Shown here: piece by piece, positions 1,023 through 23,788 of the stretch
Position numbering within the stretch: the stretch's first letter is position 1
Layout of the letters: each line of letters starts with the position of its first letter
Source of the DNA: Anaeroplasmataceae bacterium
GTDB lineage: Bacteria; Bacillota; Clostridia; Christensenellales; CAG-917
Reading direction: 5' to 3'
DNA length: 41,317 nucleotides
NCBI GenBank assembly: GCA_963659595.1
Contig: CAVKUX010000001.1
Coordinates: 1-41,317, forward strand
Position numbers and translations under genes: made by a program
The notes under the pieces: generated by a model
Databases searched by the model: none
Told to the model about the DNA's origin: nothing
Seen by the model: only the letters and a program-made list of their open reading frames with translations

Positions 1023-4000
1023 ATGAAAAACACAGGGACAACACAACAAACAAAACTGAAAAAGTGTATGAAGTGGACTGCGAGCGGATTGCTGCTTGCG
1101 GTGATGTTTGTCCTCGTCTTTGCCGGCACGCTCTCCGCGTCTTTCGGCATTGAAGAAAACCTCCAACAAAACGGCATAATCGAGAGCAATGTGGCAGATG
1201 CGGTTACTCCAAACGCAAGCACGCACACTTCAACAGTGTATTGGACGGATGCGAGAGATTCTGCCTCATTTGATATAACAAGACAAGCGCAGTATTGGAA
1301 TGTAACCACCACACCAACGAACACAACTGCGAGTACCGGAACAAATATAATAGGCTTTTCTACTACCGGTATGTCAAAGAGTTCATTACAGGTGGGACGA
1401 GCATATCATACCATCGAACTTGGAAATTTTTCAGCAACTTCAATAAAGATATCCTGTAAGGTGTATGTTCTGCTTAAATATGGTGGTGGAACGACGGCCG
1501 TTACCAAAGGTGCAAGCTTAAGGTATTCTACCAATGGAACAGACTACGATTGGATATCAACCGCAGCACATGGGTTTGATAGGGGACCAGGCAATGCCGG
1601 TTCTGATGGTTATGGTCATTATATGTTTAGAAAAGTCGCAGGTTCCGGGGAGTATTCAAAAGAATCGGAATCTGTAATGGAAAAAACAATAAATGGTAGT
1701 TTTACGCCCGGTTCGAAAATTTATCTTGAGTATGTTGACAGTTGGTATGCTAATAGCAGGGAAATAAAGAGTGGCAGTTATGGTCAATTGACATATTTGC
1801 AAGTCACGTTCGGTGGCGTTACTACAACAATCAATCTTGAATCAGGGGCAAATGGGGCAATTTCACCAAGCGGAACGCAAACATTTAATTCATCAACAGC
1901 AAGTGTAACAAGCACGGCGACACCAAATGAAGGTTATCATTTTGACGGTTGGTATGTCGGCTCAACCAAAGCGTTTTCAAATAATCCCCAAACCTTTACA
2001 GGCACAAATATTACTGCAAAGGAAACCTACACTGCAAATTTTGCACTCAACAAACTCAATGTCGTGTATTGGCGCAATCTTAATGACAGCGATAATACGC
2101 AACTGACAGACCCAAACGGAAATACGTTTACATACACACAAGCAAAAGCGTTTTACAACTTGAGTAAAACAGACGGCAAAACTTTTGTCGGGTGGGCAAC
2201 CGCAAGAAACGGTACTGTTTTGCATGGCTACGGAACGTCAACCGACGGCGGAACACAATCAATCGGCGGAGTGAGTTTCTTGCCGTCCGCTAACAATGAT
2301 GCGACGGTCAATTTGTATGCCATTTGGATTGACAGCGATTTCGGGATAGTTTCGGGCGGGAGCCGTGAAAACAATTGGGGTTCGCAAAGCAATCCTTTTG
2401 TCATTTCGACAGTGCAACATCTCAAAAACTTGTCGGAAATAGTAAACGGTTTCCGTGATCCTGTGGACAGCGTCACAGGCACATATTACGGCAACAGTAT
2501 AACAACAACAGCGACAAAGACAAACGGTGTTGTCACGTTTGCAAACTGCTATTTTGTCATTTCGGCGGATATCGGGTCGGCGAGTGCGCCGATGGAACTC
2601 ACGCCTATCGGTAGGAATGCAACCAATTATTTTGCAGGCACCATTTCGGGACAAAACAACTCGCAAAAGACGATATATTTGAATATCCAACAGAGCGGCG
2701 AGAGCAACGTCGGTCTTTTCGGCTATGTCAAGGGTGCGAGCATTTCGTACATAAAGACGGCAGGCACGGTGGTCGGCGGTACGGCAACGGGCGGCTTGGT
2801 CGGATACATGGAAAACGGGGAGATTTTCAATTGTTCAAACAGCGCAAATGTGAGCGGCACAGGCAAAACTGCCGGCATTGTCGCATACAATTTCGCTGAT
2901 GTAAGAGGAAGAATTTACGGAACAATCACCAACAGCGGAAATATCACGGGCAGCGGTTTTGTCGGCGGTATTGCAGGGCAGTATCACGGCTATTGGTGCG
3001 ATTCAAGTGCAAACTACGGCACATTTACCAACAGCGGTACGATAAACGGCGGCAGCGGCGCGTCGGTGGGCGGTGTTACGGGCTTTACGGACAGCGAGAT
3101 TAGAAACGCTGCAAACACAGGCAGCGTCACGGGCGGCTCGTCGGTTGGCGGTATCGCAGGAAGAACTCAAAACAAAATCTCAAACAGTTATAATACCGGC
3201 AATATAAGAGGTACGTCGGCGGTTTCGAACTCCGAAATCGCTGCAGGAAGTAAGACAGGCGTTTTTGCAGGAGGCATCACGGGATATACCACCGCAAACG
3301 CCACTATTTCACATTGCTACAACAAGGGTGATATTTCGGCGTTGTCAGCAAGCGGTGAGTATATATCCAGCGGTGACTTTTTGGGAGGCATCGTCGGATA
3401 TGCGCAAGCAACGGTAGAGTATTGTGCAAATATCGGCGGATTGATTGACGGCAACAATTATATCGGCGGTATAGTCGGCGATGCGTCAAGCACAACAAGT
3501 ATAAGTTATTGCTATGACGTAGAGGGGCAAAGAAATTATCGCTGGGATTACTGCAATCTCGGCGCAATCACAGGCTCGGGCGGTACGGTCACAAATTCGT
3601 GGGCAATAAAGGAAAAAGACGTGACTTGGAATGCTTCAATTTCCGGCGCCACTGTCAGCACGAGTGGCAGAAAACTCGTGACAAGTTTCACAGTCACTCC
3701 GCTTGTCATAAACGGCGGCGAAACGGAAGCGGTGTGGACGGATATTTTGTCTGCCGACATAAACGGTTTCAAGATTTCGACGAGCGTTTCAAGCGGCAAT
3801 TATCTCAAACTTTCAAATAACAACGGCAACGGTGTGCTTCCGTATAAGGTTGCAAACGGTTATACGGAGCAGAACAGCACGAGTTCAACCGCAATCACGC
3901 AAGGCAATATAAGTTGTGATATATATTACAATGCTACAACTTCAAGCGATATATACGCGCAAAGCGAAGCAATCGGCATAGACACCACAAGCAAAACATA

Positions 4001-7000
4001 TGACGCAACCGCAAAAGAGGTCGGCAGTTTCACAACACCGAGCAACTACACGCTCGCAACATTCTATTTCGATCGTGACAGTAGCGGCAATCCCACCGGC
4101 ACGCCGACAACAAGCAGAACGGATGCCGGCACATACGTTGTCATTTCGGACGTCAAGTTTACGGTTGACGGCACAACCTACGTTGTCGGTCGCAAACAGG
4201 CGGATTGGACAATCGACAAAAGAAAACTCTCGGTGGAGGGGTTGACGGACAATAAACTCGCAGTCAACTATGGCGTGAATGTCGAAAGCAAGATTGTGTG
4301 GGAAAACGTGGTGAGCGGACACAGCGTGGTGCCGGACACTTCCGCTTATAATTTTTATGAATCTAATAGTGGGTCTAATTCATATACCATTTCAAGCATC
4401 GTTGTGAAAAGCGGAAACGACGACGTTTCGAGCAACTATGAGATTACGTCATTTACGATAGTTGTTTCTGCAGGCGATTTCTACGTCCAAAACAGCGGCA
4501 TAGACGCAAACAATATCGCCGACAACAAATGGGGCAGCGTGAACAATCCGTACATAATCAGCACTCCTCAGCAACTTCAAAAGTTGACAAGTATTGTGCG
4601 CAACGACGGTGCGCTCAACAGCATACAGACGGGTGCTTATGTGTACGTCACCGCAACCGACAAAACGTATTCGGGCGCATATTTCAAACTTGCAGACAAT
4701 TTGTCGGTGGGCAATATCACGCCAATCGGCACAAATTCGGCAGCGTTTTCGGGCATATTCGACGGAAACGGCAAGACCGTTACCGTGGCTATCAATGTGG
4801 CGGGCAACTATGTCGGGTTGTTTGGATATACGAGCGGCGCGACTATCAAGAATCTCACCGTCAACGGCAGTGTGAAAGGCTCGAAGTACGTCGGCGGCGT
4901 TGTGGGCTATGCGCTCAACACCACAATCGACAACGTCACCAACAACGCATCCGTCACCGCACGATATTCCACAGACAACGATTTGCCCACATCAATTCTT
5001 CAATACGACGGCGGCAATGCTACTAATGAAGGGTTTGACAAAGTTTTTGACAACAACATTTCAACAAAGTTCTGCGGAAACGAAAACTCAAGCATGAGTT
5101 TTGTTGCGAATTTGAACAGTAATGTTGCTGTTTCGGGCTTTGCAATCACAAATGCGAACGATACGGCAACACAGACCAACAGGCGTCCGAAAACGATTCA
5201 AATTTGGGGTTCGGACACAAGAACAAGTCGCAGTAATTACAACAACAAGAGCAGCGGCGGCAACACACCGTCGGGTGCCGGCGAATCGGGTTGGACACTT
5301 GTGTATTCCGTCACAACGGACAATTTCCCGACGACAAACTATCAAAGAAACGAGTTTGCGTTTGCAAACAACAAGACTTACAACTATCAATATTACTGGG
5401 TTTATATCATAAGCGCAGGCGGACTGATTCAATTTGCAGAGTTCGACTTTTTGGCGGCAGGCGAGGACGCAGGCGGCATTGTCGGACATGCTTACACCGA
5501 CACTGCAAAGGCTATCACAAATGTCAAAAACACAGGCAATGTCGTGGGCGGCACTTACACGGGCGGTATCGCAGGATATGCGCAAGGATTGAGCAACGCA
5601 AGTTTGAATTTGAGCGGCGCTACAAGCGGCGCTACAAACAGCGGAAACATAACGGGTCATAACTATGTGGGCGGTGTTGCAGGACATGCGCAGGACTTGG
5701 CAATTTCGGGTTGTACAAACACAGGAACCGTCAGCGGCGTTGACACGGTCGGCGGCATTGCGGCGTATAGCTTTGGCGGCAACATCGTTTCAAGCGAAAA
5801 TACAGGCACAATCAGCGGCACCACCAAAGTGGGCGGCATCACAGGTCGGAAAAACTGGGGGTCAATCGGCACAAGCGGCAGCGTCACCGTCATCAACAAA
5901 GGCGCGGTTGTCGGCACAGGCTCGTATGTGGGCGGCGTTGCGGGCGTGGTTGATTCTACAACGTCATCTATAAAATACGTCGGCAACGAAGGCTCGGTCA
6001 CAGGTGCAAACTATGTGGGCGGCGTTGCAGGCAGTTCGGCAAAAGCAATAAGCAACAGTTACAACACAGGCACCGTCAGAGGCACAACCGCCGTTGATGA
6101 CGCTTTGGGCAAGGGCTTGTTTGTGGGCGGCATCGTCGGCGTGACATCGTCGGGCGTCACGGTTTCGCATTGCTACAACAAGGGATATATTACAGGCACG
6201 TCGACAAGCGGCAGCGCGGTTTCATACGCAAACTTTGTGGGCGGCATTGTCGGTTATGCGCAAGGCTCGATTGAATATTGCGCAAATATTTACGATTCGT
6301 CAATAAACAGTGACAGCAGCGCACGAATAGAAGGCAACGACAAAATTGGCGGCATTGCCGGTCAATCATCAAGCACAATCGATTTTTGCTACGACGTGCA
6401 GGGTCAGCGCAGTTTGAAACACGGCGGTGTGGTCGGTGCAGTTGTCGGCGAGGGCGGTACGGTCACAAATTCGTGGGCAATCAAAGAACGCAACTCTACA
6501 GGGAATACTCCCTCAACCATAAATACGCCAAACCATACGTTGACGACCGATTTTACGGTTGCGCCGAGAGTGGGTACGATAAGCAATAGTGTGTGGACGG
6601 ACGGCTCGGGCGATTGGGTGTGGGAGGATATCCTCACTCAAAATATCAACGGATTCAAGGTCAGCGGAAGCGTTGCAACCGACAACTATTTCCTCTCGTC
6701 AAAGGGGTCTGGCAATACGACGGAATATCTTGCGCCGAGCAAGGTTGAAAACAGCAATACCGCAAACGCTACGTCGAGGACAGATACGACGGCGTTTACA
6801 ATCACGGCGTGGTACGGCGCAAATACGCAAAGCAATATCTATTGCGCGACAGAGGGCATCGCAATTTCAAACGCAACAGAAATATACAACGGAAGCGAGC
6901 AAGGCTTTGACAAGGACGACGTCAATCCGCCTCTTGCAAGCGGCAAAGTGTACGGAGTTGTGTTTGACTACTACAATGCGAGCGTTACGCCGATTGAGGG

Positions 7001-16000: not shown

Positions 16001-19000
16001 TGCCGCTTCGGACGCTTCCACAGGTTGGGGCGGCGTTGGCGGCGCAATCGGCGTCATCGGCTCGAAAGTCGCAGAGTGGGGTTTGAGCAACACATACTAC
16101 GCAAACGGCAATGTCGTGGCAAGCGGCATCAACAACGTCGGCGGCATCGTCGGACTTGTGCTTGCAAAGGATATCGTCATAAGCAATATGCTCGCCCACA
16201 AGACAACCGTCAAGGGCGGCGACAACGTCGGCGGTATCGTCGGCGCAACAAAGGGCACGGGCACCGTCATCAAGTCGGCATACGCCGTCGAGGGTACGTT
16301 CGAAGGCTCAGGCAACGTCGGCGGCATCATCGGTCTTGCGGCAAGCGACACCGACGCAAAAACTTCCTACTGGGTCAAAGGCTATTCCAACGCAATCCTC
16401 GCAGGTACGGACGTCAAAAACCTGCAAGAAGAACTCGGCAAGTATGAAGCCATCGTCGAAACCGTGGACGGTCAAGAGGTGGTGTTCACCGAAGAATTCT
16501 GCAAGTTGTACACGCCAAAGACCTATTACGCCGACTACACCGGCACGCATAAGTACGGCAACGCAACCGTGACTGCCGTCACCGATGAGAGCGTGACGTG
16601 GGCGCAGTATTTTGAAAATAGTCTCAACATCACGGGTGCGACAATCAACAACGGCGCATGGGTCAAGCCAACAGGCGCAACGACCTACACGACGGGCACG
16701 GCTAAGACAGGCTGGTATTTCGTCTACGCAAACGACAAGATTGCAAATCCGAGCGCAACGACCATTGGCACTATCAGCGCGGAGCATTCTCCCAACGCCA
16801 ACTTGTCCTATTGGAAACGCATTGCCGACGCGTACACCGCAAGCGAGCGCAAAGCGGGCGCAGACAAGTCGACTCTCACCGCTTCGCTTATCGTCTCGGG
16901 CGACGGTCAACCGCAAAAATCCACCCTCTACGCCACCGCGACTTCCGCAGGCGAAAACAGCGGATATTATCTGTATATGGCAACGTCGGGCAACTCTCGT
17001 CCGAGCGCAACGTATTCGGACGGCTTGTTCTTCATCAAGACCCTCACCGCAAACGAAGACGCGCTCGCTGAAAACGTCGCCGTGTACTATCGCACCATTT
17101 CGAGAGGCAAATCTCTCACTTACAACGGCTACGCGCGTTTCGCGCCCGTCGGAATCACCGCTTCGGAAGGCGTTTCCGTACCGTTTATCGCAACTCCGAC
17201 AACGGACACGACAAAGGCGGATTCCTATTGCTATTCCTCCGACACGTCGGCGGACGGCACGAAAACCGAACCAGGCACATTCAAGTCGAACGTCAAGATT
17301 TACTACTTCGACAGCGAAGGCACGCCTCACGTTGTCGGCGGCGTCGCAATCGACTGGGAAATCAAAAAGCGCGACCTCGAAGCAGAGTTGTCCGTTCCTT
17401 CCGGCAAGTTGACATACGGCGATCCCGACATCAACGCAGTTTTGACAATCGCTAATGTCGCGCCGATCGACGGCAACAATCAAGGTGCGTCGGGCAACAC
17501 CCAATTTGAAATATCGGTAAAAGACGAGAACGGCAACGAAATTGCGAAGTTCACTTGGAACGGCACCGGATTTAACGGTCAATCGGCAGACGGCAAAGTT
17601 GTTGTCAACAACGTTACAGTTTCAAACGGCGGCTTCGGAAACGGAGATGACCTCAGCGGCGACGATTTGCAGTTTAATGTCGACAATATCGACGGCCTCG
17701 ATTTGACAACGAGAACGTTCAGTTGCAACATTAACTTCTTGGACGCAAAGACGTACAAAGTCAGCGTTAGTACGCCGAATAAGGAAAGCAAATACAATCC
17801 ATCGCCGATACTCAAAGACCAGACGATAACCGTCAACCCCGCAGAACTTACGTTGACGAGAACTACGAGCGCTTCGCACTACTTTGATAATAGCAGTACG
17901 GGTAAAGGCGCACAGTGGACTGTTTCGGGCTTCAAATTTAGCGACGGCGCATTGCAATTTGCCGCATTCGAACCTGTGTTTGTGATGGAATTGGGCAAAC
18001 AAAACACCACCAAAGAAATCACCGAAACAGCGATGCACGCAAACGGCGAGTTGATAAATACGATCACAATCAACAATGTGATTCAAGTCGCCTATGGCGG
18101 CGCAACCGAAGGACAAGGCGGCAGGACGTTGAGTTTTAATTTGACAGGCGTGTCCAAAGTGGGCGATTACTATATCCAGACCAAGGGCGGAAAGGGATAT
18201 CGCGTCGGCAACTATACGCTGACATTTGACGGCGCAAGCGTGCCGACCTATTCGATAACCGAAAATAAGATTACGATCACCGAAAGCACGAATGAGTCAG
18301 ACGGAACTCATATCTACAACGGCAGTCAAAAGGGAACGATAACGTTGACGTTCACAACAGACGCAGGTAAGAGTATTGAAAATCTCGGTACATTCGTTGA
18401 ACAATTCTTTAAAGTAGCAACAAACGGCGTTACAGAAAAGACAAAGCCGTCCGCATCGTCGAGTAATACAACCGTAACATGGGTGTTCGAAACAGGAATA
18501 AATGCCAAGAAGTACAGCGTAACGCTAAACAAAGGCGATGGCTATGATGAAGCGTCAAAGAACTGTTCTCACACCCAGTCAGTACCGAAAACATACTATT
18601 ACGAGATTACGAAGCGACAGCTCACCGTCGAATTTACGCAAACGGGCAGCTCGCCGTATGTGTACAACACTTATCATCAAGGACTTTCCACCGTCAAGAT
18701 TTCAAATCTGTGCCAAGTCGGCAATGTGTGGGATTCTGTCAATATTACGTTAAACGTCGGCAACAACTCCATTAGCGTTTCGTCAAACGGCAACAATGCG
18801 GTTGATGTAAAAGATAGGGTGAACACAAGAAACGTCGGGACATACACCGCAACAATCAATTCAACGCTTGGCGGAACGAGCAGCGGCAACTATTACATCT
18901 CCAACACAGGCGTAAGCACGAGTTGGACAATCAACCAGTATACACTTCGACTCAGCGGATTGACCGGCGGCGAGAAAACCTATGACGGCACTGCCGTAAC

Positions 19001-22000
19001 GCCAAAACTTATAGTCGACGGCAGTGAAGTTTCAGACGGCAAGATTAGATTTGGTGCGGATACGATAACAATCAAATATTCCGCAACCGTTGGCGGCGTG
19101 TTGCACGACGGCGACATAGTGAATGCAGGAACGTATACGATTAGTATCGGCGGCAACGCAACCGACGCGATTGTCGCAATGCGCGATGGGGAAAACACAA
19201 CGCAAAACTATACGGTTGCAGGCACCGACGAGGCAACTTACACGATAGCACCAAGACAAATCAAACTCTCTTGGGATAGTGCGACGGCGTTTGTGTTCAA
19301 CAACGCGGAGCAAGGCTTGAAGATCACGGGCGTTGAAAGCGTCAGCGAGGGCGGAAACGGACAACTTGCGGTTTCGTCGTCCACTCTAACGGAGGCGAGA
19401 ATCAAAGGCTATGCAGGAAAAGACGTTATCGTAATCACCGTATCGGGTGCAATCACTCACGTTGCGGACGGCAAGAAGTCTATGACGGCATCCATAAGCA
19501 GCGTTACGGGCAAGAATGCCGACAATTCGACGGATTCGATAAAGGGTAACTATGCGATTTCCGTGGGAAGCACAAGCGGCGAGTTCGAGATAACTCCGTC
19601 CGTTGTGTCCATAAGCTTTAATGCACCGAACGCAACTCTCGAAAAAGTGTACGACGGCAATGCTACAGTCCCGACAAGTCAGATTCTCGGCAGTTACTTC
19701 ACGGTGAGCGCAACCGGACACGTTCCGAGCAATCCGTTTACAATCAGCGGAAGATATGACGACAAAAACGTGGTTTACGATTCAAACAACAACGTAACGG
19801 GCGGCAAAGCGGTCACGTTCTCGTATACGTTCACCGACCCGACAGGCGTTGGAGATTATATTGAGGGCAGCGTGGATACGGCGGCATACAACGTCGGCAA
19901 GATTACGCCCGCACACATCAAAGTGACGCTCGACAAACTGCGCTCCAACAAGGCGACGAGGACGTACACCGACGGCACGACCTACGGCGGCAACGGCGTA
20001 AGCGGCAACGGCACGAGCAGCACATATCGCGCAGGCGAAGGATTCAGAGTCAGCGGCGTTTTGTCGGGCGACAGCGTGACAATCAACGCAAATTATGCAG
20101 AAGCGTTGGATTCGCGCAACAGCAGTGCAAACAGCGGATTCGACTTTGCAAAATACGTCAACGACGTATATAAGGACTCGGACGGCACGTTCAAGAAAGC
20201 AACGTCGGGCACATACCTCAAGAAACTCGTGTTCGAGATGACGGGCACGTCGGCAGGCAACTATACCTTCAACGTGTACCATTCGAGCGACGGCGCATAC
20301 GGCAATTCGGACGGAAACCATGTGACGAAAGTCACCGTGTACGACAGCAGAGAAACCGACCAAAGCCGCAAAAATGCGAGCGGTTCGCCGAGCATCCAAA
20401 TCGAAATAACCGTCAAATCCGTCAAGGTGGAATACTCCAACACCGCTCAAAGTTACGCCAACGACGACAATACCTACAACACCGACTGGAAGCGTGTTAC
20501 AGGCACCAACAAGGAAACGGACAAAGCAGGCGCGGACATCATCGTCACAAACGGCTGGATGTATTCGGACGGCATAGACCGCGATGCGGATTCCACCGAC
20601 CAAAAGAGAGAATATCACGGCTATACGACCATTCAGGGCAGATCGGGCAATTCGCGGCTCGGCGCGTCGGTGACCACAAAAGACGGTATGAATCTCAACT
20701 ATCGCCTCAGCAATCAGCCCACGCTCACCATTGCGTACTTCGTGGCGGAGGGCGACGAGTACAAGATAAGTTCGCTTGCGCAATTGCTCATTGCGTCCTT
20801 CTACTACACGGCGCATCAGAATCCGCAAAACCTCGATATGATCAAGATCGTATCCTCGGGCTACGAGTGGGTTACGGTCGTAAAAGTGGATGAAAGCGGC
20901 GCATACATCGGCGATTATGAGAAGCCGAGCAATTCGCCGATTACAAACTCCAACGCAAACACGTGGGACGAGTACCTTGCCGAATTGCAAGCGGCGGATT
21001 ATGCGGTGTTCCTCGACACCGAAAAGAAAGAGTGGGGCTACTATCAATCCACGCAATCCACCACAACCGCAATCCCGACCAAGTTTGTGCAAATCAAGGA
21101 CATCACGGGTACGTTTACGACGGACGATATCGAAATTCTCAATGCGTTCTTCACAACATCGTCCGTGGGCGAGGACGGCACCGTCACCACTACGACATAC
21201 AACTGGAACGGATCGAGCAAGCAATTCCTCACCAACGTACTCAAGGCGAGAGCGGGCGCAAACGTGACGATAAACGGCAGTCTGTTCGAGTCAACGGCAA
21301 AAGCAGACGGAAGCAACGAGTTGACAGGCTTTGACGGCTCTTACGACGGCAACGGCTACGTCATCGAATATCTCAACATAATGGGCTACGGCAAGACGAA
21401 CGTCGGTTTGTTCGATATCATAGGCGCAAGCGGTATCGTCAAGAACGTGCATTTGAGAAACGTCACAATCAACGCGAGCGGCGGCAATGTCGGCGGCATA
21501 GCGGGCAGTGTGCTTGCCGCGGCAGAGGCTGCAAGCGAAACGAGCATTAAGAACGTGTCCGCACACGGCGCAATCAACGTGAGCGGCGGCACGGTTGGCG
21601 GTCTGTTCGGAACGAGTGCGAGAGATATCGAAAACGCAATCGTTCTCGGCACGATAATCTCTCAAAACGCAACCGTCGGCGGCGTTGTCGGCACGACGAG
21701 CGCAAGCGTAAAGAACGTCGTTTCCCTCGTGCAAATCACCGCAAACGGCGGCACGGTCAATCCGATCACGACTTCGAGCGCAACGATTGAAAATTCCTAC
21801 CATATGACAAACGCCGTGTGGCAAAAAGGAAGCATATTCGTCAACGTTTCGGGCAACTCAAAGACCTTCAACGAGTTGATGTCGGGTTCGGTTTCGGGTT
21901 ACGGCAATGAAAACAAGTATTATTACGCAGGCGAGAGCGCACCGACAAAAGGTACGTTCGACGTTCTCGACGACGTACAACTTACCGCACTGTCGGCAAT

Positions 22001-22427
22001 CGGCGCGCAAAACGCAGCAAACGAGAGGCAAAGTATGCGCCTCAAAGATATAGTTTCCGTATATCTAATGATGTATTCTTTGTCAAAGATGACGGGAACG
22101 CTCACAAGCGAAAGCAATACGTTCAATGTCAACGTATATGCGCTCGGTTCGAGTTGGCTCGTGGGCAATGCGGACGGCACGCAAAGCAATCCGATTGCCA
22201 TTGCAAACAAGCAAAACGTGTCGCTTTTAAGACAACTTCCGTTTGCGACGTTCACGCTCAAGAAAAATATCGCAATCGATATAACAAGCACGTTTGCAGG
22301 CGCTTTCTTCGGAACGGTCGAAAGCGCAACGGACAGCACAGGCACGTCGCTCGGATATAAGATAACTTGCAACAAGGATATGTTCGAAGCGTACGCCCCA
22401 AGCAGTTCGAGTTGGTTGACAACTTGA
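1023..22427 (+). CDS. Giant (7,134 aa) modular cell-surface protein with many GLUG-type repeats. It also carries Listeria-Bacteroides repeats, an F5/8-type-C-like domain and MBG/YDG-type Ig-like repeats; putative adhesin.
   Basis: Single open frame of 21,405 nt with GGAG 8 nt upstream of the ATG. An N-terminal hydrophobic anchor is present (LLLAVMFVLVFAG). Dozens of (Y)VGG(I/L/V)(V/A)G motifs with N/T/S/G-rich linkers. Recurrent NP(Y/F)xIxT..QL module heads. All long antisense ORFs inside it look like shadow frames. Confidence 0.9.
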   Translation: MKNTGTTQQTKLKKCMKWTASGLLLAVMFVLVFAGTLSASFGIEENLQQNGIIESNVADAVTPNASTHTSTVYWTDARDSASFDITRQAQYWNVTTTPTNTTASTGTNIIGFSTTGMSKSSLQVGRAYHTIELGNFSATSIKISCKVYVLLKYGGGTTAVTKGASLRYSTNGTDYDWISTAAHGFDRGPGNAGSDGYGHYMFRKVAGSGEYSKESESVMEKTINGSFTPGSKIYLEYVDSWYANSREIKSGSYGQLTYLQVTFGGVTTTINLESGANGAISPSGTQTFNSSTASVTSTATPNEGYHFDGWYVGSTKAFSNNPQTFTGTNITAKETYTANFALNKLNVVYWRNLNDSDNTQLTDPNGNTFTYTQAKAFYNLSKTDGKTFVGWATARNGTVLHGYGTSTDGGTQSIGGVSFLPSANNDATVNLYAIWIDSDFGIVSGGSRENNWGSQSNPFVISTVQHLKNLSEIVNGFRDPVDSVTGTYYGNSITTTATKTNGVVTFANCYFVISADIGSASAPMELTPIGRNATNYFAGTISGQNNSQKTIYLNIQQSGESNVGLFGYVKGASISYIKTAGTVVGGTATGGLVGYMENGEIFNCSNSANVSGTGKTAGIVAYNFADVRGRIYGTITNSGNITGSGFVGGIAGQYHGYWCDSSANYGTFTNSGTINGGSGASVGGVTGFTDSEIRNAANTGSVTGGSSVGGIAGRTQNKISNSYNTGNIRGTSAVSNSEIAAGSKTGVFAGGITGYTTANATISHCYNKGDISALSASGEYISSGDFLGGIVGYAQATVEYCANIGGLIDGNNYIGGIVGDASSTTSISYCYDVEGQRNYRWDYCNLGAITGSGGTVTNSWAIKEKDVTWNASISGATVSTSGRKLVTSFTVTPLVINGGETEAVWTDILSADINGFKISTSVSSGNYLKLSNNNGNGVLPYKVANGYTEQNSTSSTAITQGNISCDIYYNATTSSDIYAQSEAIGIDTTSKTYDATAKEVGSFTTPSNYTLATFYFDRDSSGNPTGTPTTSRTDAGTYVVISDVKFTVDGTTYVVGRKQADWTIDKRKLSVEGLTDNKLAVNYGVNVESKIVWENVVSGHSVVPDTSAYNFYESNSGSNSYTISSIVVKSGNDDVSSNYEITSFTIVVSAGDFYVQNSGIDANNIADNKWGSVNNPYIISTPQQLQKLTSIVRNDGALNSIQTGAYVYVTATDKTYSGAYFKLADNLSVGNITPIGTNSAAFSGIFDGNGKTVTVAINVAGNYVGLFGYTSGATIKNLTVNGSVKGSKYVGGVVGYALNTTIDNVTNNASVTARYSTDNDLPTSILQYDGGNATNEGFDKVFDNNISTKFCGNENSSMSFVANLNSNVAVSGFAITNANDTATQTNRRPKTIQIWGSDTRTSRSNYNNKSSGGNTPSGAGESGWTLVYSVTTDNFPTTNYQRNEFAFANNKTYNYQYYWVYIISAGGLIQFAEFDFLAAGEDAGGIVGHAYTDTAKAITNVKNTGNVVGGTYTGGIAGYAQGLSNASLNLSGATSGATNSGNITGHNYVGGVAGHAQDLAISGCTNTGTVSGVDTVGGIAAYSFGGNIVSSENTGTISGTTKVGGITGRKNWGSIGTSGSVTVINKGAVVGTGSYVGGVAGVVDSTTSSIKYVGNEGSVTGANYVGGVAGSSAKAISNSYNTGTVRGTTAVDDALGKGLFVGGIVGVTSSGVTVSHCYNKGYITGTSTSGSAVSYANFVGGIVGYAQGSIEYCANIYDSSINSDSSARIEGNDKIGGIAGQSSSTIDFCYDVQGQRSLKHGGVVGAVVGEGGTVTNSWAIKERNSTGNTPSTINTPNHTLTTDFTVAPRVGTISNSVWTDGSGDWVWEDILTQNINGFKVSGSVATDNYFLSSKGSGNTTEYLAPSKVENSNTANATSRTDTTAFTITAWYGANTQSNIYCATEGIAISNATEIYNGSEQGFDKDDVNPPLASGKVYGVVFDYYNASVTPIEGFICAFDADGNKISGANPSQAGEYNTTVFIKIGDVVVGKKVGVTYKIDQETINVSWTWTDGLWQDKFNRTQNSVYTSTTNNVFIYNRAGQGLSGVTFAYANNTFTDTALSRFTLTGNGTFTTENGTLTEINASGSAYSRTYTLGDTRNFKIHSTNTNVDLSGTSITFEWIIRKNKLYITNLWTSADVGSEENIYVFEYNAAHQGIAEREGENEGIILVVEPDTKNITHTIDGSAYTIAPYVGTINVGTYTRTRTFTINNTTNYEIGNCSSRIVNTTTLLKTQKGVSKTSTSVTYSWKIVQYNIANNFANGKVWFGGIAGNDGLIVGNQSASTISGTTRGGDSVSVDYYPLQSAQNGVQQVLVYGQTRYAQDKFVIYVEYNDGRIAQLSNATATEYTLSDLDTPTAANPTPINTSVKASGLGNFAGDLSKYYTVLYSDFGWKSGKNPSSANWGTADNPYVIDRPEYLLRLSQIVNGGMAWNSIANTAYCYAPQATATAQNRTYSGTFFLVSANIDMTDYVSTDGLTNFLPIGDGEHPFSATFDGSNNVGSERIIYSITYIYNINLFVNNANSSGGERLDYVGLFGYIDGATIQNLTVKSKSVTVNNASYKGVYGRDYVGGVVGKAVNSTIEEVQLDYGGYVQGNDYVGGIVGFAQNTTIANSAKIFNANVKGRFYVGGIAGEWQVNDKNQLGLGRHDTLTPIDSSYVEGVKYVGGLVGWLDLSNCSGSVSFTPQYNNTANKTLEVKGTEYVGALFGTLIGNGYRQSANSTGLTSIVIESGKVGNVTLKPVTYADGNSTYLPKIVGGLVGFIESAALVFGTSWNTNNITFDFNKTSTSFLGGVVGVMGKNSTIEMFVLNKDDGSTLTSVDGAITANTQFGSYGVYNAGSFVGGIVGYVSSQAGTFWNDGTTIFGNAVKLENTANISATGFAGGIFGALGNIALSKIEQSVGAVYNEISVAQNQDNRTNILQKILVGGVREGLSGSTLGIAPTTDSDYVSGANGKLRNTASVYVSKKDNVGGEYVGGILGYCGANVRLVLRNAPQTGDIDTSALNVYSGGTNVSFMGSYAGGVAGFCDNLEHELQYIVVQAKFIDKNATRVGGLIGEMTSGAINGCVAVSAMAAGESISFDTDNFQGTEYVGGLVGKTENATIKDSIATGFNLQSTSITKGGVLGGGTNPTIEASWTFYIANEGATYSTISANEYGKYILVDKDTITSNGSSYPSFEKLCAFAGIANTLQNGVVGVLEFALNVPTQRQLAFYDASGSDSETTNGGSASDFESNNTNGVLTIKLDMETGTSMQVCIIKVEFVNVPKHYANDDARITVVENCYKKPSASSRYFVEVLEETIFDVGDTNQIKRIKARVYFDWNNDGKATLIGESDTASEKTGDYDQEFNPGDEASPYTISTQAEWNDFAYSIYSGANDYDGKFVKLLTDDIVIDNSTHYGTASSTQPLNFNTTCTPNNNSDDSKNAASNLGYNFAGNITQGGSTVEKIYFGEGNTTLSSVTPSFKGTFDGNGHTIIINYTSGGTHRLSVFPNAANATFKNLTIDGTITAGTNTSDSGYDIAAFVGKPFGAITFENCTAAVDIQGLRIIAGFAGYSTKSAPLTFTGCVNKGNIHSFEWSSWEKSGTQDIGNQYDYSYGTGGFIAYASTDIVFESCLNTGNITGGSKIGGLVGRVTNEDKGKTILTINNCANKGRIYSEEYNPYNENDTKQKSANVWSKAGGLVGEVDYYTEMTMCASYNTGEVRAIGNIAGGLVGIIGTIPGGSSNNKAGYTETQYQSKINYCYNTGAVTVGNVAWGGIPSWGSSGYNFNGTNAGGIVGVTGYVSIAYTYNAGHITGYGGVGYFLSWQTRNGGIIGELTTHSNSNVGSVANKHRADITNCYNVGMIELKESKSSEVRYSADIIGYMGDGTVSNLYTITNSYGIANNIINYTDGKGNPTYYSGVNSAGSIDSTSYAKGITLNSLADLTAVMRADGTVKPKAYSGTSEQNLWTASIATIGAQETAAYKNGTLAGYVYVYGCLPQLAVFSVDTYNGLSMNSTNYGKDATYGEEGSYVKQAAGEKLSPYVIRDGIDLMGVQTLVGLGYSFDGKYIEFANGKNNITLDQNLSSDVAQSIDLPTSNSTTAKLDATNGTAYKAKGTSGGYTQTGKSYHLFAKSAVCADDNGTTANTAYGYWLGHNHYYNGAYGNRDGGYVATCTFKIQNLLTIGRNGKTFEGSISGKQDNGTNTTINNLRVSTGMATGGAYAGLFGHAHDAYIGYIEITGDSNIWAYSSDGSQIAATGAIAGYATGNTTIEHCAVSGTTAIGAYGKTDTTNLATDNITFAGGIVGLVDTKQGSAYSAGTTLTIKDCSVNIATTTGDRSTFAGKIVATKNNIGGVLGYVDGASGASGKGNSVRIENCNVQQATIQAASSATTSSHIGGIVGFGSQYVSAFVTGCKVGVDGNVTISGEHSLGGIAGGMSNAQGGYIDSCTVGANASITRIDQGGDGNVAESADHGTAIGGLVGFTQNSTDTVSPLTTTFSGTSSFGGTITVGVAATNQSADSDAAISQIGGIVGDMGSGANFASGSVVTVGGTISVTPNAANVGGVAGRTNTATFIGKFDVHPNMSTANTENVGGFIGKNIGTVYILSDNTDKLADGKLNGTQISIGGTIVGTSEVGGFIGVNNSQSVLHIGSNVANAKPYKSGTLNITITATVTGSGENVGGIVGKNEGASANGATDYATMDIVKGVITQNGAISGKNYVGGIIGLNQGLLTTGGGEADTSVGGATLTTEQINSIKNLSITNKGNVKGGETNDGTYVNGDYVGGVVGFLDSPDKLKATDEGKGAIAGTFTNVGTVEGGRFVGGSIGFVGKNVTITAKDTDTLFDNDGAVTAHGYFAGGSIGALVGTIEGTTQYSVNFENEGNVNAAGFVGGSIGVLAGHVKYAQFVNKSNGLTVSAVNSVGGSVGYIGIPTPLDTVLATLGITLDDEHIKVVNTHFEAAGNLTASATSDVITAAKNAASDASTGWGGVGGAIGVIGSKVAEWGLSNTYYANGNVVASGINNVGGIVGLVLAKDIVISNMLAHKTTVKGGDNVGGIVGATKGTGTVIKSAYAVEGTFEGSGNVGGIIGLAASDTDAKTSYWVKGYSNAILAGTDVKNLQEELGKYEAIVETVDGQEVVFTEEFCKLYTPKTYYADYTGTHKYGNATVTAVTDESVTWAQYFENSLNITGATINNGAWVKPTGATTYTTGTAKTGWYFVYANDKIANPSATTIGTISAEHSPNANLSYWKRIADAYTASERKAGADKSTLTASLIVSGDGQPQKSTLYATATSAGENSGYYLYMATSGNSRPSATYSDGLFFIKTLTANEDALAENVAVYYRTISRGKSLTYNGYARFAPVGITASEGVSVPFIATPTTDTTKADSYCYSSDTSADGTKTEPGTFKSNVKIYYFDSEGTPHVVGGVAIDWEIKKRDLEAELSVPSGKLTYGDPDINAVLTIANVAPIDGNNQGASGNTQFEISVKDENGNEIAKFTWNGTGFNGQSADGKVVVNNVTVSNGGFGNGDDLSGDDLQFNVDNIDGLDLTTRTFSCNINFLDAKTYKVSVSTPNKESKYNPSPILKDQTITVNPAELTLTRTTSASHYFDNSSTGKGAQWTVSGFKFSDGALQFAAFEPVFVMELGKQNTTKEITETAMHANGELINTITINNVIQVAYGGATEGQGGRTLSFNLTGVSKVGDYYIQTKGGKGYRVGNYTLTFDGASVPTYSITENKITITESTNESDGTHIYNGSQKGTITLTFTTDAGKSIENLGTFVEQFFKVATNGVTEKTKPSASSSNTTVTWVFETGINAKKYSVTLNKGDGYDEASKNCSHTQSVPKTYYYEITKRQLTVEFTQTGSSPYVYNTYHQGLSTVKISNLCQVGNVWDSVNITLNVGNNSISVSSNGNNAVDVKDRVNTRNVGTYTATINSTLGGTSSGNYYISNTGVSTSWTINQYTLRLSGLTGGEKTYDGTAVTPKLIVDGSEVSDGKIRFGADTITIKYSATVGGVLHDGDIVNAGTYTISIGGNATDAIVAMRDGENTTQNYTVAGTDEATYTIAPRQIKLSWDSATAFVFNNAEQGLKITGVESVSEGGNGQLAVSSSTLTEARIKGYAGKDVIVITVSGAITHVADGKKSMTASISSVTGKNADNSTDSIKGNYAISVGSTSGEFEITPSVVSISFNAPNATLEKVYDGNATVPTSQILGSYFTVSATGHVPSNPFTISGRYDDKNVVYDSNNNVTGGKAVTFSYTFTDPTGVGDYIEGSVDTAAYNVGKITPAHIKVTLDKLRSNKATRTYTDGTTYGGNGVSGNGTSSTYRAGEGFRVSGVLSGDSVTINANYAEALDSRNSSANSGFDFAKYVNDVYKDSDGTFKKATSGTYLKKLVFEMTGTSAGNYTFNVYHSSDGAYGNSDGNHVTKVTVYDSRETDQSRKNASGSPSIQIEITVKSVKVEYSNTAQSYANDDNTYNTDWKRVTGTNKETDKAGADIIVTNGWMYSDGIDRDADSTDQKREYHGYTTIQGRSGNSRLGASVTTKDGMNLNYRLSNQPTLTIAYFVAEGDEYKISSLAQLLIASFYYTAHQNPQNLDMIKIVSSGYEWVTVVKVDESGAYIGDYEKPSNSPITNSNANTWDEYLAELQAADYAVFLDTEKKEWGYYQSTQSTTTAIPTKFVQIKDITGTFTTDDIEILNAFFTTSSVGEDGTVTTTTYNWNGSSKQFLTNVLKARAGANVTINGSLFESTAKADGSNELTGFDGSYDGNGYVIEYLNIMGYGKTNVGLFDIIGASGIVKNVHLRNVTINASGGNVGGIAGSVLAAAEAASETSIKNVSAHGAINVSGGTVGGLFGTSARDIENAIVLGTIISQNATVGGVVGTTSASVKNVVSLVQITANGGTVNPITTSSATIENSYHMTNAVWQKGSIFVNVSGNSKTFNELMSGSVSGYGNENKYYYAGESAPTKGTFDVLDDVQLTALSAIGAQNAANERQSMRLKDIVSVYLMMYSLSKMTGTLTSESNTFNVNVYALGSSWLVGNADGTQSNPIAIANKQNVSLLRQLPFATFTLKKNIAIDITSTFAGAFFGTVESATDSTGTSLGYKITCNKDMFEAYAPSSSSWLTT
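1843..2327 (+). other. Listeria-Bacteroides repeat (Flg_new-type) region inside the giant ORF
   Basis: GYHFDGWY..., ...TYTANF, ...GKTFVGWATARNGT..., ...VNLYAIW are the hallmark strings of this repeat. Confidence 0.6.
4975..5455 (+). other. F5/8 type C (discoidin/CBM32-like) domain inserted among GLUG repeats of the giant ORF
   Basis: NEGFDKVFDNNISTKFCG ... VSGFAITNAND ... RPKTIQIWGS ... YYWVYIISAGGLIQFAEFDF resembles the discoidin-fold layout (A.DGN..T.W near the N-terminus, I.E(I/F) at the end). Confidence 0.5.
17340..20100 (+). other. Run of MBG/YDG-type Ig-like repeats inside the giant ORF
   Basis: Repeated strings KTYDGTAVTPKL, KVYDGNATVPTS, FVFNNAEQGLKI, YVYNTYHQGLS, IYNGSQKGT and NYxIS/NYTF endings. 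An isolated copy (KTYDATAKEV) lies near 3993. Confidence 0.5.
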
Positions 22428-22454
22428 TTTGGTTAGATAATCGATAAAATCGTT

Positions 22455-22480
22455 CTCGGACGGCGCAAAAGCCGTCCGAG
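22455..22480 (+). terminator. Stable hairpin 28 nt after the giant ORF stop (possible terminator or mRNA stabiliser; no U-tract)
   Basis: CTCGGACGGC-gcaaaa-GCCGTCCGAG, a perfect 10-bp stem. It is followed by cgcgag rather than a T run. Confidence 0.3.
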
Positions 22481-22693: not shown

Positions 22694-23788
22694 ATGCAAG
22701 CAAGCAAAAGCAAAAACCTAAAAATCGTAATGTCGATTATGATTCCGCTTTTGATAATCGTGACCACCGTCGTTATGGTGGGCGCGTCTTTTGCGTGGTT
22801 CACCAACGCCGACAAGGTCACAATCACCGAAATCACGATGTCTACGGCGGATTCTTACAAAATCGACTTTACTCGTCAGCCGCCGTCCACCGACGGCAAA
22901 ACACTGTATGACAACATGCAGTACGTCGGACAGACCGCTTTTTGCGCAAGCGGCGCAAATGTCGGCAAACTTATGTCGGCAGCCGTTGCAGGCAACAACG
23001 ACGTCGACATAAGCAATCGCGCGTACTACTTCATCAACACCGTTGCGCTCGACACGCAGGGTAAAACCTTCGATATGAGTATGGCGTTTGACGGCGTGAA
23101 AATCATCAAATATAAACGCGACGCAGACGGCAAGATTGTCCAAGATGACAACGGTGCAAATATTGTCGAAAAAACAAACAAAATCTATGCCGCGCAAGGC
23201 GACAACGTTTCGCCGATGAGCGACATTCCTTATGCGTTCACTTGGTTTTTCAAAGCGCACGGCGAAACGGATGAAGACGGCGTGGTGAGGAACTATCAAA
23301 TCTACGACATCGACGAGCAAACGCAAGGGAAAAAACTCAAACAATTCCAGCCGCAAAAGAATGAAGTGTGGTACACACCTTACGGCAAACTCACTTTCGG
23401 CGACGACAATCTCGTTGCGCTCGTAAACGACGACAGTACAATCGATTCAACGAGCATAAGGGACGTTGACAAGCGCGTCATCGACAATTTCGGCACGCAG
23501 GGCGTAGGCGACTCCACGTCGCAACTGTTCGATTTCTACATCGTTTTTGCGCCCGAAAAACTGTTCTGGATGCAGTTTTTCTCGCAAGACAGAGACAAAT
23601 ACACCGCAACCGACATCTACACAACTACGGTTGACGGCGAAACGAAAAACGACGACACCAAAAAGATTTTTGAATCATTGTCCAATCAGATGTACTATTC
23701 GCATATGGATTATTCGGGTTCTACGTTTGAATTTTCGGCGGTGATCAACGTGACGACAATGCACGAGGAGGCGCAGAACAATGAATAA
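22694..23788 (+). CDS. Secreted or anchored protein with a SipW-dependent-type (TasA/camelysin-like) signal motif; function unknown
   Basis: 364-aa ORF with RBS AAAGGA. The N-terminus is KSKNLK + hydrophobic IVMSIMIPLLIIVTTVVMVG + ASFAWFTNADKV, resembling the GGT(L/F)A(Y/W)F(T/S)D motif of SipW-cognate signals. Confidence 0.8.
   Translation: MQASKSKNLKIVMSIMIPLLIIVTTVVMVGASFAWFTNADKVTITEITMSTADSYKIDFTRQPPSTDGKTLYDNMQYVGQTAFCASGANVGKLMSAAVAGNNDVDISNRAYYFINTVALDTQGKTFDMSMAFDGVKIIKYKRDADGKIVQDDNGANIVEKTNKIYAAQGDNVSPMSDIPYAFTWFFKAHGETDEDGVVRNYQIYDIDEQTQGKKLKQFQPQKNEVWYTPYGKLTFGDDNLVALVNDDSTIDSTSIRDVDKRVIDNFGTQGVGDSTSQLFDFYIVFAPEKLFWMQFFSQDRDKYTATDIYTTTVDGETKNDDTKKIFESLSNQMYYSHMDYSGSTFEFSAVINVTTMHEEAQNNE

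Follow-up and report, generated by a model that had tools for sequence, protein, structure and literature searches.

A 21.4-kb gene for a putative fibrillar surface protein and its downstream cassette of three membrane-anchored proteins in uncultured human-gut Clostridia

The window, that is, the whole stretch of DNA that we analyzed, is a complete NCBI contig of 41,317 bp and contains no N. More than half of it is taken up by a single open frame on the forward strand (the giant gene), whose translation has only one stop, the terminal one, and which carries a GGAG sequence 9 nt 5' of its ATG. Directly downstream, we found three small genes encoding N-terminally membrane-anchored proteins (orfA, orfB, and orfC), which represent a new observation. 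The start of orfB overlaps the stop of orfA, and the start of orfC overlaps the stop of orfB. The giant gene and the cassette are separated by a segment with a hairpin, and the region from 22425 to 22560 folds with a free energy of -47 kcal/mol (z = -4.4). An Rfam scan of the window returned two tRNAs only, with no leader RNA upstream of the giant gene. The features are listed in Table 1.

Table 1. Features of the giant gene, its protein, and the downstream cassette (positions in the window)
Feature	Residues (aa)	Position	Strand	Remarks
Giant gene	1-7134	1023..22427	+	ATG start, 7,134 codons plus stop; 747 kDa, pI 5.0
Leader	1-40	1023..1142	+	K-rich N-region and hydrophobic segment; near-invariant in all relatives
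Post-leader peptide (FGIEENLQQNGIIESNVADA)	41-60	1143..1202	+	Invariant; retained in relatives with as little as 27-36% identity
Hypervariable head	61-268	1203..1826	+	Beta-rich, no family assigned; diverges right after aa 60
Flg_new_2/Listeria-Bacteroides-type repeats	269-435	1827..2327	+	One significant unit, one sequence-like
GLUG beta-helix module 1	438-870	2334..3632	+	Pfam GLUG, AF2, Foldseek
Beta-rich (Ig-like) spacer	871-1157	3633..4493	+	Paralogous to aa 1830-1960
GLUG beta-helix module 2	1158-1830	4494..6512	+	Pfam GLUG 54 bits
Discoidin/galactose-binding-like domain (likely)	~1320-1478	4980..5456	+	Insert looping from module 2
Beta-rich spacer	1831-2427	6513..8303	+	No Pfam match; YNG motif at aa 1953
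GLUG module 3	2428-3180	8304..10562	+	Module-head HMM 222 bits
GLUG-like module 4	3390-3930	11190..12812	+	SPYTIS head motif at aa 3391, GG[IV]xG density
GLUG-like module 5	4050-5110	13170..16352	+	Longest module, lowest dN/dS; internal similarity, motif density
Ig-like MBG/YDG-type repeat run	~5441-6290	17343..19892	+	Two units backed by orthology
Most conserved region	6291-7134	19893..22424	+	Dense invariant columns in alignment
Hairpin		22455..22480	+	GC-rich, 10-bp stem; 28 nt past stop codon; no U-tract
orfA	364 (length)	22694..23788	+	N-terminal TM helix ending in invariant SFAWF, orphan ectodomain
orfB	274 (length)	23781..24605	+	N-terminal TM helix ending in AAWF[TS]N, all-beta ectodomain
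orfC	229 (length)	24602..25291	+	N-terminal TM helix and BspA-type leucine-rich repeats

An earlier note, made from the window's sequence, had described an uninterrupted 21.4-kb gene for a protein of 7,134 aa. This held in full, with one frame, a single terminal stop, and collinear orthologues in independent assemblies. Given the length of the frame and the GC content of the region (43 to 58%), a chance origin is impossible. A chimeric or repeat-collapsed contig could have produced a falsely long frame: the protein has a modular, repetitive build, its gene comes from a draft or metagenomic contig, and the sequences of two relatives (L024 and L025) are broken at N10 scaffold gaps. However, self-BLAST with 200-aa windows of the protein gave at most 51% amino acid identity between modules, and at the DNA level the largest intragenic repeats are 30 to 77 nt long with 60 to 85% identity (74% for the 77-nt repeat). 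The only tandem repeat in the gene is a trivial one of 25 nt. Independent assemblies are collinear with the giant protein for thousands of residues: one orthologue (L006) aligns in a single HSP over aa 436 to 5298 with 83% identity, others over aa 1 to 4711 (L009, 62%), aa 2235 to 7132 (L024, 64 to 76%), and aa 4130 to 7133 (L026 and L028, about 50%), and one collinear orthologue sits on a 1.38-Mb scaffold. Gene callers predicted single-gene orthologues of 7,062, 6,604, 6,036, and 6,104 aa, and in 13 of the 18 species representatives the frame is open up to the end of the fetched DNA. Since the internal repeats are diverged and the orthologues from independent assemblies are collinear, and with dN/dS even along the whole gene, we regard an assembly artifact as extremely improbable. 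A two-gene layout in L024 and L025 was likewise rejected, because the split corresponds to the N10 gaps.

An open frame may also belong to a decaying or unexpressed relic that is no longer used, and several relatives are indeed disrupted, at differing sites: by a T9 frameshift (L002/L003), by a TAA stop (L004), and by frameshifts (L005 and the long-read L010). These real disruptions, in three or four relatives, indicate that the giant gene can be lost. However, dN/dS is about 0.26 overall and 0.10 to 0.31 across all 600-codon windows, at orthologue dS values of 0.23 to 0.79, with the lowest values (0.10 to 0.19) at aa 3486 to 4686. Moreover, the 21-kb frame is kept in lineages down to 50% identity, and the operon partners are conserved. 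A relic is thus very unlikely, and the giant ORF is a genuine gene maintained by selection. The T9 frameshift also prompted us to consider phase variation via homopolymer slippage, which was rejected for the window copy because its giant gene lacks single-base runs of 7 or longer.

The domain architecture of the protein consists of GLUG modules alternating with beta-sandwich spacers of Ig-like and MBG/YDG type. Pfam GLUG (PF07581) scored 48.4 bits for aa 1 to 2500 and 54.2 bits for aa 694 to 1593, against a cutoff of 20.5 bits. Blocks 3 to 6 are at or below this threshold, with module 3 close to it (17.6 to 19.2 bits), and blocks 4 to 6 were named GLUG-like from internal similarity, a module-head HMM, and motif density. 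Modules 1 and 2 share 41 to 51% identity, and module 4 is similar to both in the self-comparison, which also aligned aa 801 to 998 with aa 1753 to 1960. The first spacer (aa 871 to 1157) is all-beta in the AF2 model, at low confidence. The most conserved region, at the C terminus, is made up of a conserved domain, GLUG-like module 6 (aa 6570 to 6930), and a truncated module head (aa ~7045 to 7134). The presence of GLUG repeats, as proposed in the earlier note, was therefore borne out by 48 to 54 bits in blocks 1 and 2, but the count is six blocks plus the partial C-terminal head rather than at least seven.

The other domain assignments of that note stood in part. For the Listeria-Bacteroides repeats, placed at about aa 275 to 435, Flg_new_2 (PF18998), an InlB B-repeat family, matched aa 269 to 343 (E value of 8e-9, 34 to 36 bits versus a cutoff of 23.6), while aa 344 to 435 are sequence-like without being Pfam significant; matches to PF09479 (Flg_new) and TIGR02543 are weak and below threshold. 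The discoidin/CBM32-like domain could be placed at the superfamily level, with its exact family not fixed. When scanned alone, the insert gave 23.0 bits for Sad1_UNC (cutoff, 22) and 19.5 bits for F5_F8_type_C_2 (cutoff, 27.8; E value of 0.0015). F5_F8_type_C_2 was matched in 5 of its 11 orthologues and F5_F8_type_C in 2 of the 11 (best E value of 1e-6), and a PDB profile search with the insert gave no sequence match. The insert is thus likely a member of the galactose-binding-like superfamily, an assignment meant at that level only. The run of MBG/YDG repeats, claimed for about aa 5440 to 6360, is backed by orthology for two units (aa 5972 to 6077 and 6197 to 6283), onto which the YDG/MBG matches in 7 of 16 orthologues map (best, 36.8 bits versus 25). 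Both units bear the K-x-Y-D-G-T/N signature, as in known MBG/YDG repeat proteins (PF17883 and PF18657), whose threshold the relatives pass; unlike in those proteins, the window sequence itself is below the Pfam threshold and the units account for little of the giant. Pfam and NCBIfam gave nothing for aa ~3700 to 7134 of the window protein, and, the two YDG units excepted, aa 3200 to 7134, about half of the protein, have no family match. PDB sequence searches with GLUG block 1 and the C terminus gave no meaningful match.

We modeled the first part of the protein with AF2. In this 1,160-aa model, the mean pLDDT is 46.7 and one beta-helix block is reliable, with pLDDT values of 70 to 91 for aa 450 to 780. 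The top five Foldseek hits of this block, 7uvk, 6xja, 6xjb, 7uvl, and 7jgj (probability of 0.99 to 1.0 over 305 to 422 columns), are all M26 IgA1 protease structures, so that the GLUG block, as modeled, resembles the beta-helix N-terminal domain of these proteases. Beta-helices scaffold many polysaccharide-degrading enzymes, and the protein could be a secreted enzyme, with catalysis by the beta-helices (as in an M26-like protease, or in a glycanase of the pectate-lyase or depolymerase type) and substrate targeting by the Ig and discoidin domains. Besides the structural neighbors, a weak Peptidase_M26_N match in one relative and the GH3 and GDPD genes in the neighborhood would fit such a function. 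However, the matched part of the IgA1 protease, a compact right-handed beta-helix, is non-catalytic, the catalytic residues being in the middle and C-terminal domains (PMC7695701). Neither HExxH nor HxxEH occurs anywhere in the 7,134 aa, no Peptidase_M26_C, catalytic, glycoside hydrolase, or lyase Pfam domain was matched, and the structural match to polygalacturonase has an E value of only 0.75. The lack of HExxH led us to reject a protease function, and we consider an enzyme of any of these kinds improbable. Like the M26 enzymes (S. pneumoniae IgA1P/ZmpA and G. haemolysans IgA1P; 6XJA, 6XJB, 7UVK, 7UVL, and 7JGJ), the giant has GLUG repeats and a beta-helix, at aa 450 to 780; unlike them, it has no middle or C-terminal catalytic domain, HExxH, G5 domain, or LPXTG, and instead of one module it has six, the longest of about 1,060 aa and one with the discoidin-type insert.

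Among relatives, conservation is high in the leader, the 20-aa post-leader peptide, and the final ~850 aa, and the N-terminal head is hypervariable, with other domains of 390 to 1,370 aa substituted for it in relatives. A PDB sequence search with the head (aa 61 to 268) gave no match. Hydropathy analysis identified aa 15 to 44 as the only strongly hydrophobic segment, in agreement with the N-terminal anchor noted before. The final residues of the leader are S-A-S (S-G-A in relatives) and could be a signal-peptidase site; they are followed by the invariant columns F41, G42, E44, L47, Q49, N50, G51, I53, N56, V57, A58, and A60 in the post-leader peptide. At the other end (...APSSSSWLTT), LPxTG-like motifs are absent past aa 6638 and there is no hydrophobic segment, and SLH or CW_binding repeats were not found with Pfam or NCBIfam at an E value of ≤5. 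Hydropathy, motif, and family scans thus all agree with the earlier statement that a C-terminal LPXTG, SLH or choline-binding repeats, and a C-terminal TM segment are absent.

The cassette lies directly 3' of the giant gene in all six independent loci examined (L024 to L029). Homologues of orfA amount to 76 cluster representatives among 1.84e9 proteins. orfB has 300 unnamed homologues and an AF2 core at aa 105 to 258, and Foldseek with its model gave no significant PDB fold match. In orfC, LRR_5 was matched at aa 129 to 198 (E value of 3e-7, 30.6 bits versus 27.7), and its orthologues are recorded in the same family; an exact-sequence look-up with orfC returned a sole match, on a 913-bp contig. 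Judged by its synteny, the cassette may be involved in retaining the giant on the cell and offers a concrete lead on this question.

One way in which this could work would be that orfA and orfB are SipW-type substrates able to polymerize or take up a donor strand and that aa 41 to 60 of the giant plug into them, tethering it to a fiber or anchor. The TM helices of orfA, orfB, and orfC end in [S/T]xA followed by [WV][FW][TSI][NS], a motif which we take to resemble the TasA/CalY cleavage region. The N-terminal region is what orfA and orfB share (hhalign E value of 3e-4), the orfB ectodomain is all-beta, and the post-leader peptide of the giant is invariant; in TasA, the donor strand consists of the 11 residues right after the signal peptide (PMC9674648), which also counts in favor of this idea. 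However, SipW-cognate, TasA, and camelysin (Peptidase_M73) models in NCBIfam and Pfam were unmatched even at an E value of ≤10, a search in which the HMMER filters may drop very weak matches. TasA is missing from the structural neighbors of the orfB model, none of which is significant, the orfA and orfB profiles match no PDB sequence, and neither the window nor the fetched loci encode a SipW-like peptidase. The leader of the giant resembles that of orfA in hydrophobicity only; for this reason, with hhalign finding similarity to the orfA and orfB leaders at the TM level only, we rejected the assignment of the giant leader to their class. Curated HMMs, structure modeling with Foldseek, and PDB profile searches thus do not support the three proteins as TasA/SipW type, and donor-strand tethering of this kind appears unlikely. 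The system is like Bacillus TasA/TapA/SipW in its co-encoded small secreted beta-rich proteins, in the aromatic motif closing the signal/TM segment, and in the conserved post-leader peptide, but TasA and camelysin were matched neither in sequence nor in fold, the neighborhood lacks a SipW gene, and the likeness serves as a lead only.

Taken together, we consider it probable that the real gene described here encodes an exported, non-enzymatic, fibrillar surface protein. It would be exported by Sec and, going by generic beta-helix and Ig-domain dimensions, could form a very long, semi-rigid fibril on the order of 0.1 to 0.2 micrometers. Such a fibril would hold the lineage-specific, putatively binding head and the candidate glycan-binding insert away from the cell. 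Displayed in this manner, they suggest a role as a non-enzymatic adhesin or spacer, with mucus glycans, particles, or other cells as possible targets. The Flg_new_2 repeat and the YDG/MBG units, which we read as candidate binding modules like the discoidin-type insert, would fit such a role. The giant would be held on the cell without sortase. Its retention via orfA, orfB, and orfC is a tentative proposal drawn from gene order, in which the conserved C-terminal region would most likely dock onto a membrane-anchored complex of the three proteins; alternatively, the conserved leader might stay uncleaved as a signal anchor beside them. More speculative still, and rather doubtful, is that the giant and the three small membrane proteins are an undescribed sortase-independent system for assembling and anchoring a surface fiber of ~750 kDa, in which docking would occur via the post-leader peptide (FGIEENLQQNGIIESNVA) or the C-terminal ~850 aa and SFAWF/AAWF would be a processing or donor-strand-like site as in TasA/TapA.

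Giant fibrillar adhesins are known from Gram-positive bacteria, such as Ebh of S. aureus with ~10,000 aa. Our protein is like adhesins of the Ebh type in its size of several thousand residues, its export signal at the N terminus, its stalk of folded-domain repeats, and its variable distal region for binding, if the head indeed has this role. Unlike those proteins, with their FIVAR-GA, Ig, or Rib repeats, it is built from GLUG beta-helices and MBG/YDG units, and it has a conserved leader and a three-gene cassette but lacks LPXTG, SLH or choline-binding repeats, and a TM anchor at the C terminus. Flg_new and GLUG domains co-occur in membrane-associated proteins of gut microbes, which have been proposed to be adhesin-like adaptations (PMC9723798). 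The adhesin-like proteins of Methanimicrococcus blatticola share with the giant the combination of Flg_new and GLUG and a gut organism as the source, but they are ordinary sized, archaeal, and uncharacterized, and the function of GLUG is stated to be unknown there (PMC9723798).

We investigated the distribution of the family with aa 1 to 1160 and aa 5950 to 7134 as queries. The family is restricted to uncultured human-gut Clostridia, including Christensenella sp. UBA..., Firmicutes bacterium CAG:238 or CAG:475, and HGM, UMGS, and Hadza MAGs, and identity to orthologues in other species is 50 to 83%. An exact-sequence look-up did not find the intact giant in a collection of 15 billion proteins, where fragments are present and unnamed. 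The family is nearly hidden in existing databases. Purifying selection keeps the gene in at least 18 species-level lineages of these common gut bacteria. The giant is a tractable case for how monoderm cells that use no sortase, SLH, or choline-binding anchor for a protein of this size retain it, with the cassette as the candidate partner set. The genomes of relatives are about 1.4 to 1.65 Mb in size (a closed MAG of 1,647,214 bp and the 1.38-Mb scaffold), so that the giant gene takes up about 1.3% of a chromosome of this size, a cost which suggests that its product is important at the cell surface, probably for attachment in the gut.

The gene at 1023..22427 (+) is a single ORF, as the earlier note had claimed, with an ATG start, 7,134 codons, and one stop at the end; GGAG lies 9 nt 5' of the ATG. 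Its product, here called the giant, is predicted at 747 kDa and pI 5.0, with G, T, S, and N as abundant residues. An entire NCBI contig of 41,317 bp, free of N, makes up the window. When 200-aa windows were compared with the whole protein by BLAST, inter-module identity was at most 51% (top pair, aa 701-895 versus 1658-1850). The longest DNA repeats inside the gene measure 30 to 77 nt at 60 to 85% identity; in essence they are GGCGGC codons that encode the GLUG motif. One array of 25 nt was reported by Tandem Repeats Finder in the gene, which contains no homopolymers of 7 or more bases. There is nothing for assemblers to collapse or mis-join, and the gene is no assembly artifact.

A scan of species-representative genomes returned 18 loci with a homologue of the giant gene. 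The homologous frame is open for 3,500 to 5,700 aa, as far as the fetched DNA reaches, in 13 of the 18, and single-gene orthologue calls in further loci gave 7,062, 6,604, 6,036, and 6,104 aa. Loci in other assemblies (designated by L numbers) are collinear with the giant: L006 at 83% identity (aa 436-5298, one HSP), L009 at 62% (aa 1-4711), L024 at 64 to 76% (aa 2235-7132), and L026 and L028 at ~50% (aa 4130-7133). Independent assemblies thus agree on the gene seen in the window. By the Nei-Gojobori method, dN/dS was 0.265 against L006 (4,812 codons) and 0.262 against L024 (1,700 codons). It stayed between 0.10 and 0.31 in all 600-codon windows, which shows that the whole frame is under purifying selection.

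Some relatives carry breaks. In one relative (L002/L003), a T9 run (CCGCTTTTTTTTTGACGG; L002 ~6780-6810, L003 ~2690-2710) bears a +1 frameshift; this break is seen in both an ENA and a Logan assembly, possibly of common sample origin, and could be phase variation or sequencing error. The window's giant gene has no such run. The frame is interrupted in L004 by one in-frame TAA, in L005 by a frameshift at an A-rich run, and in L010, a long-read MAG, by one frame change. Homology runs on past each of these breaks. The ancestral form is therefore a single giant ORF, and the breaks reflect either sporadic loss of function or errors in sequencing. Apparent gene splits in L024 and L025 were rejected, as their positions match N10 scaffold gaps.

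The relatives come from MAGs titled Christensenella sp. UBA6880, UBA7571, UBA7588, and UBA767; Firmicutes bacterium CAG:238 and CAG:475; Clostridia bacterium HGM11462; UMGS1042 and UMGS1043; and Hadza. By MAG naming conventions, these titles denote uncultured Clostridia of the human gut; three other titles (Phascolarctobacterium, Butyrivibrio, and Bacteroides) are probably mislabeled bins. The lineage carrying the giant is common in the human gut but uncultured. Among the relatives, one is on a closed long-read MAG of 1,647,214 bp and another on a 1.38-Mb scaffold; in a genome of that size the gene would take up ~1.3%.

Features of the giant protein (aa) and of the DNA downstream of its gene (nt)
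Feature	Position	Size	Remarks
Leader	aa 1-40		K-rich N-region, then hydrophobic stretch
Post-leader peptide	aa 41-60		FGIEENLQQNGIIESNVADA
Flg_new_2	aa 269-343		E 8e-9; second unit below threshold, region aa 269-435
GLUG module 1	aa 438-870		Pfam GLUG strongly significant
GLUG module 2	aa 1158-1830		Pfam GLUG strongly significant
Discoidin/galactose-binding-like domain	aa ~1320-1478	~160 aa	between coils of GLUG module 2
GLUG module 3	aa 2428-3180		Pfam GLUG near threshold
GLUG module 4	aa 3390-3930		internal similarity
GLUG module 5	aa 4050-5110		internal similarity
YDG/MBG-type units	aa 5972-6077 and 6197-6283		within aa 5441-6290; orthology
C-terminal region	aa 6291-7134		family's most conserved part
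GLUG module 6	aa 6570-6930		internal similarity
Truncated seventh GLUG head	aa ~7045-7134
GC-rich hairpin	22455-22480		28 nt 3' of giant stop; 10-bp stem, no U-tract
orfA	22694-23788	364 aa	directly 3' of giant gene
orfB	23781-24605	274 aa	start overlaps orfA stop
orfC	24602-25291	229 aa	start overlaps orfB stop; BspA-type LRRs

By Kyte-Doolittle analysis, the N-terminal hydrophobic segment noticed earlier spans aa 15-44 and is the sole strongly hydrophobic one in the giant. The leader ends in S-A-S (S-G-A in relatives), plausibly a signal peptidase I site. Leader and post-leader peptide are near-invariant in all relatives, even at 27 to 36% overall identity, and complete sequence divergence begins directly after aa 60. 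The head upstream of the first beta-helix module varies from 390 to 1,370 aa across lineages and is mostly without family assignment. The giant belongs to the GLUG-motif class. A head such as WGSxxNP[YF]xIxTxxQLxxLSxIVN starts each GLUG module, and beta-rich spacers set the modules apart; Pfam GLUG gave no match on modules 4 to 6. The earlier note's count of at least seven blocks comes down to six modules, the seventh being a truncated head only, and its discoidin-like domain, supported at superfamily level, lies inside module 2. Its Listeria-Bacteroides repeats hold for one unit, the second being subthreshold. Two units of its MBG/YDG run are orthologous to segments that exceed the Pfam YDG/MBG thresholds in relatives, but the window copy is subthreshold, possibly because its second unit has an insertion of 8 residues.

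We modeled aa 1-1160 with AlphaFold2 from a 7-sequence alignment. The model was poor overall (mean pLDDT, 46.7), but aa ~450-780 were modeled confidently (pLDDT, 70 to 91), and DSSP assigned them periodic triplets of short strands, as in a solenoid. The top five Foldseek matches in the PDB are M26 IgA1 proteases (7uvk, 6xja, 6xjb, 7uvl, and 7jgj; E 3.5e-4 to 1.2e-2, probability 0.99 to 1.0, 305 to 422 columns aligned). In Streptococcus pneumoniae IgA1P, the matched region is the beta-helix of the N-terminal domain (NTD), residues ~781-1070; this domain is a noncatalytic lid, and the HExxH residues belong to the middle domain and the C-terminal domain (PMC7695701). The confidently modeled block of the giant resembles this NTD beta-helix, and the giant has six such modules, but unlike the proteases it contains neither HExxH nor HxxEH in its 7,134 aa, which argues that the scaffold is used and not the enzyme.

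The cassette of orfA, orfB, and orfC, which is new relative to the earlier note, also lies 3' of the giant gene in L024, L025, L026, L027, L028, and L029. Each protein has a short basic N-terminus and a single TM helix with a conserved motif at its end (orfA, GASFAWFTN; orfB, VTAAWFTN; orfC, VSYAVWIS); SFAWF is (near-)invariant in the orfA family despite 26 to 49% overall identity. orfA has 76 cluster representatives among 1.84 billion proteins, and orfB has ~300 relatives, all unnamed. Similarity between the two is confined to the N-terminal ~60 columns (hhalign E 3e-4). The 136 nt around the hairpin that precedes orfA have a folding z of -4.4; the hairpin might be a message stabilizer or a partial terminator.

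In the best-supported reading, the giant would be a nonenzymatic fibril of great length, exported by Sec and acting as an adhesin or a spacer. Its shaft would consist of the beta-helix rods and the Ig-like spacers; ligands or glycans would be bound by the hypervariable head and the discoidin insert. The invariant elements, namely the leader with its peptide and the last ~850 aa, would function in export and retention. As the earlier note had stated, the C-terminal region has no TM helix, LPXTG, SLH, or CW_binding repeats. Gram-positive adhesins usually have the N-terminus distal and the C-terminus proximal; a variable N-terminal head and a conserved C-terminus fit this polarity, so C-terminal docking is preferred. 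From conservation and synteny, we favor docking of the C-terminal region on a membrane-anchored orfA/B/C complex, in which the LRR protein orfC would be a natural protein-protein adaptor. Alternatively, the conserved leader may be an uncleaved signal-anchor in association with the three TM proteins, which would agree with the same conservation and synteny and equally account for the invariance of the leader.

A further idea of low probability, ALTERNATIVES, would place orfA, orfB, and orfC in the SipW-cleaved TasA/CalY type. Their TM-end motif is reminiscent of the signals that SipW cleaves in TasA and CalY. The donor strand of TasA is formed by the residues right after the cleavage site (PMC9674648). 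However, NCBIfam and Pfam gave no match even at E<=10, the orfB model (pTM 0.62), whose core at aa 105-258 is all beta, had no significant PDB neighbor, and the orfA and orfB family profiles matched nothing among PDB sequences. Moreover, the leader of the giant is like that of orfA in hydrophobicity only, and no SipW-like gene is nearby. Tests by HMM, fold, profile, and neighborhood thus gave no support to this membership.

Proteins of >5,000 aa are documented but rare, and bacterial ones are mostly NRPS/PKS or cell-periphery proteins (PMC11573180). GLUG is a motif of unknown function, possibly adhesive, which co-occurs with Flg_new in gut-adapted microbes (PMC9723798). Our literature search found no paper on the giant's family, and among homologues only a 961-aa fragment has a source name, "GLUG domain protein [Firmicutes bacterium CAG:475]." We count the giant among giant repetitive surface proteins. 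It differs from them in that it has six beta-helix modules like the M26 NTD, carries a leader peptide specific to its family, lacks any known anchor, and comes with its own cassette of three genes. Assignment as an M26 protease, sortase substrate, SLH protein, or choline-binding protein was rejected, as the features are absent. A specialist would not be surprised by the size as such; what merits testing is the conserved cassette and how the protein is retained.

Other elements were observed in the window. An integrated element of ~9.35 kb (25849-35199) sits at tRNA-Thr, flanked by exact 47-nt direct repeats (25802-25848 and 35200-35246) that correspond to the tRNA-Thr 3' end. Among its genes are those for a tyrosine integrase (25969-27201, -) and an HTH repressor (27269-27661, -), alongside ORFs without annotation (28351-34017). 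L026 and L028 are without it: GDPD follows the tRNAs after ~650 to 700 bp, and native sequence resumes at window position 35200. A second exact repeat of 165 nt (25834-25998 and 35390-35554) combines the final 15 nt of tRNA-Thr with 150 nt from the left end of the element and recurs past attR; a RelB/ParE toxin-antitoxin pair (35654-36245), missing from L026, follows the second copy. This region resembles what a further integration, or a tandem one, would leave behind. At 25404-25744 there are three tandem units of 113 to 114 nt, 83% and 68% identical to the first, which start upstream of tRNA-Ser(TGA) (25675-25763) and extend into it. The two upstream units each copy the tRNA-Ser 5' part (GGAAGCGTATCGAAGCGGTCATA...) and are not called as tRNAs; L026 has a single copy of the segment.

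A short GC-rich element occurs twice in the 740-nt intergenic region 5' of the giant gene (~421-503 and ~905-962; GCTGGATTCCCACG...CTCGGAATGACG and GAATGAC[AG]AGAGGG[CT]GGG[AG]AC.CCC.CACCCGA); it matched no Rfam family. At the very start of the contig is a RelB-family antitoxin gene (9-281, -), whose toxin partner is expected past the contig end. In relatives, a CsoR-type repressor and a copper P-type ATPase take the place of this antitoxin gene 5' of the giant.
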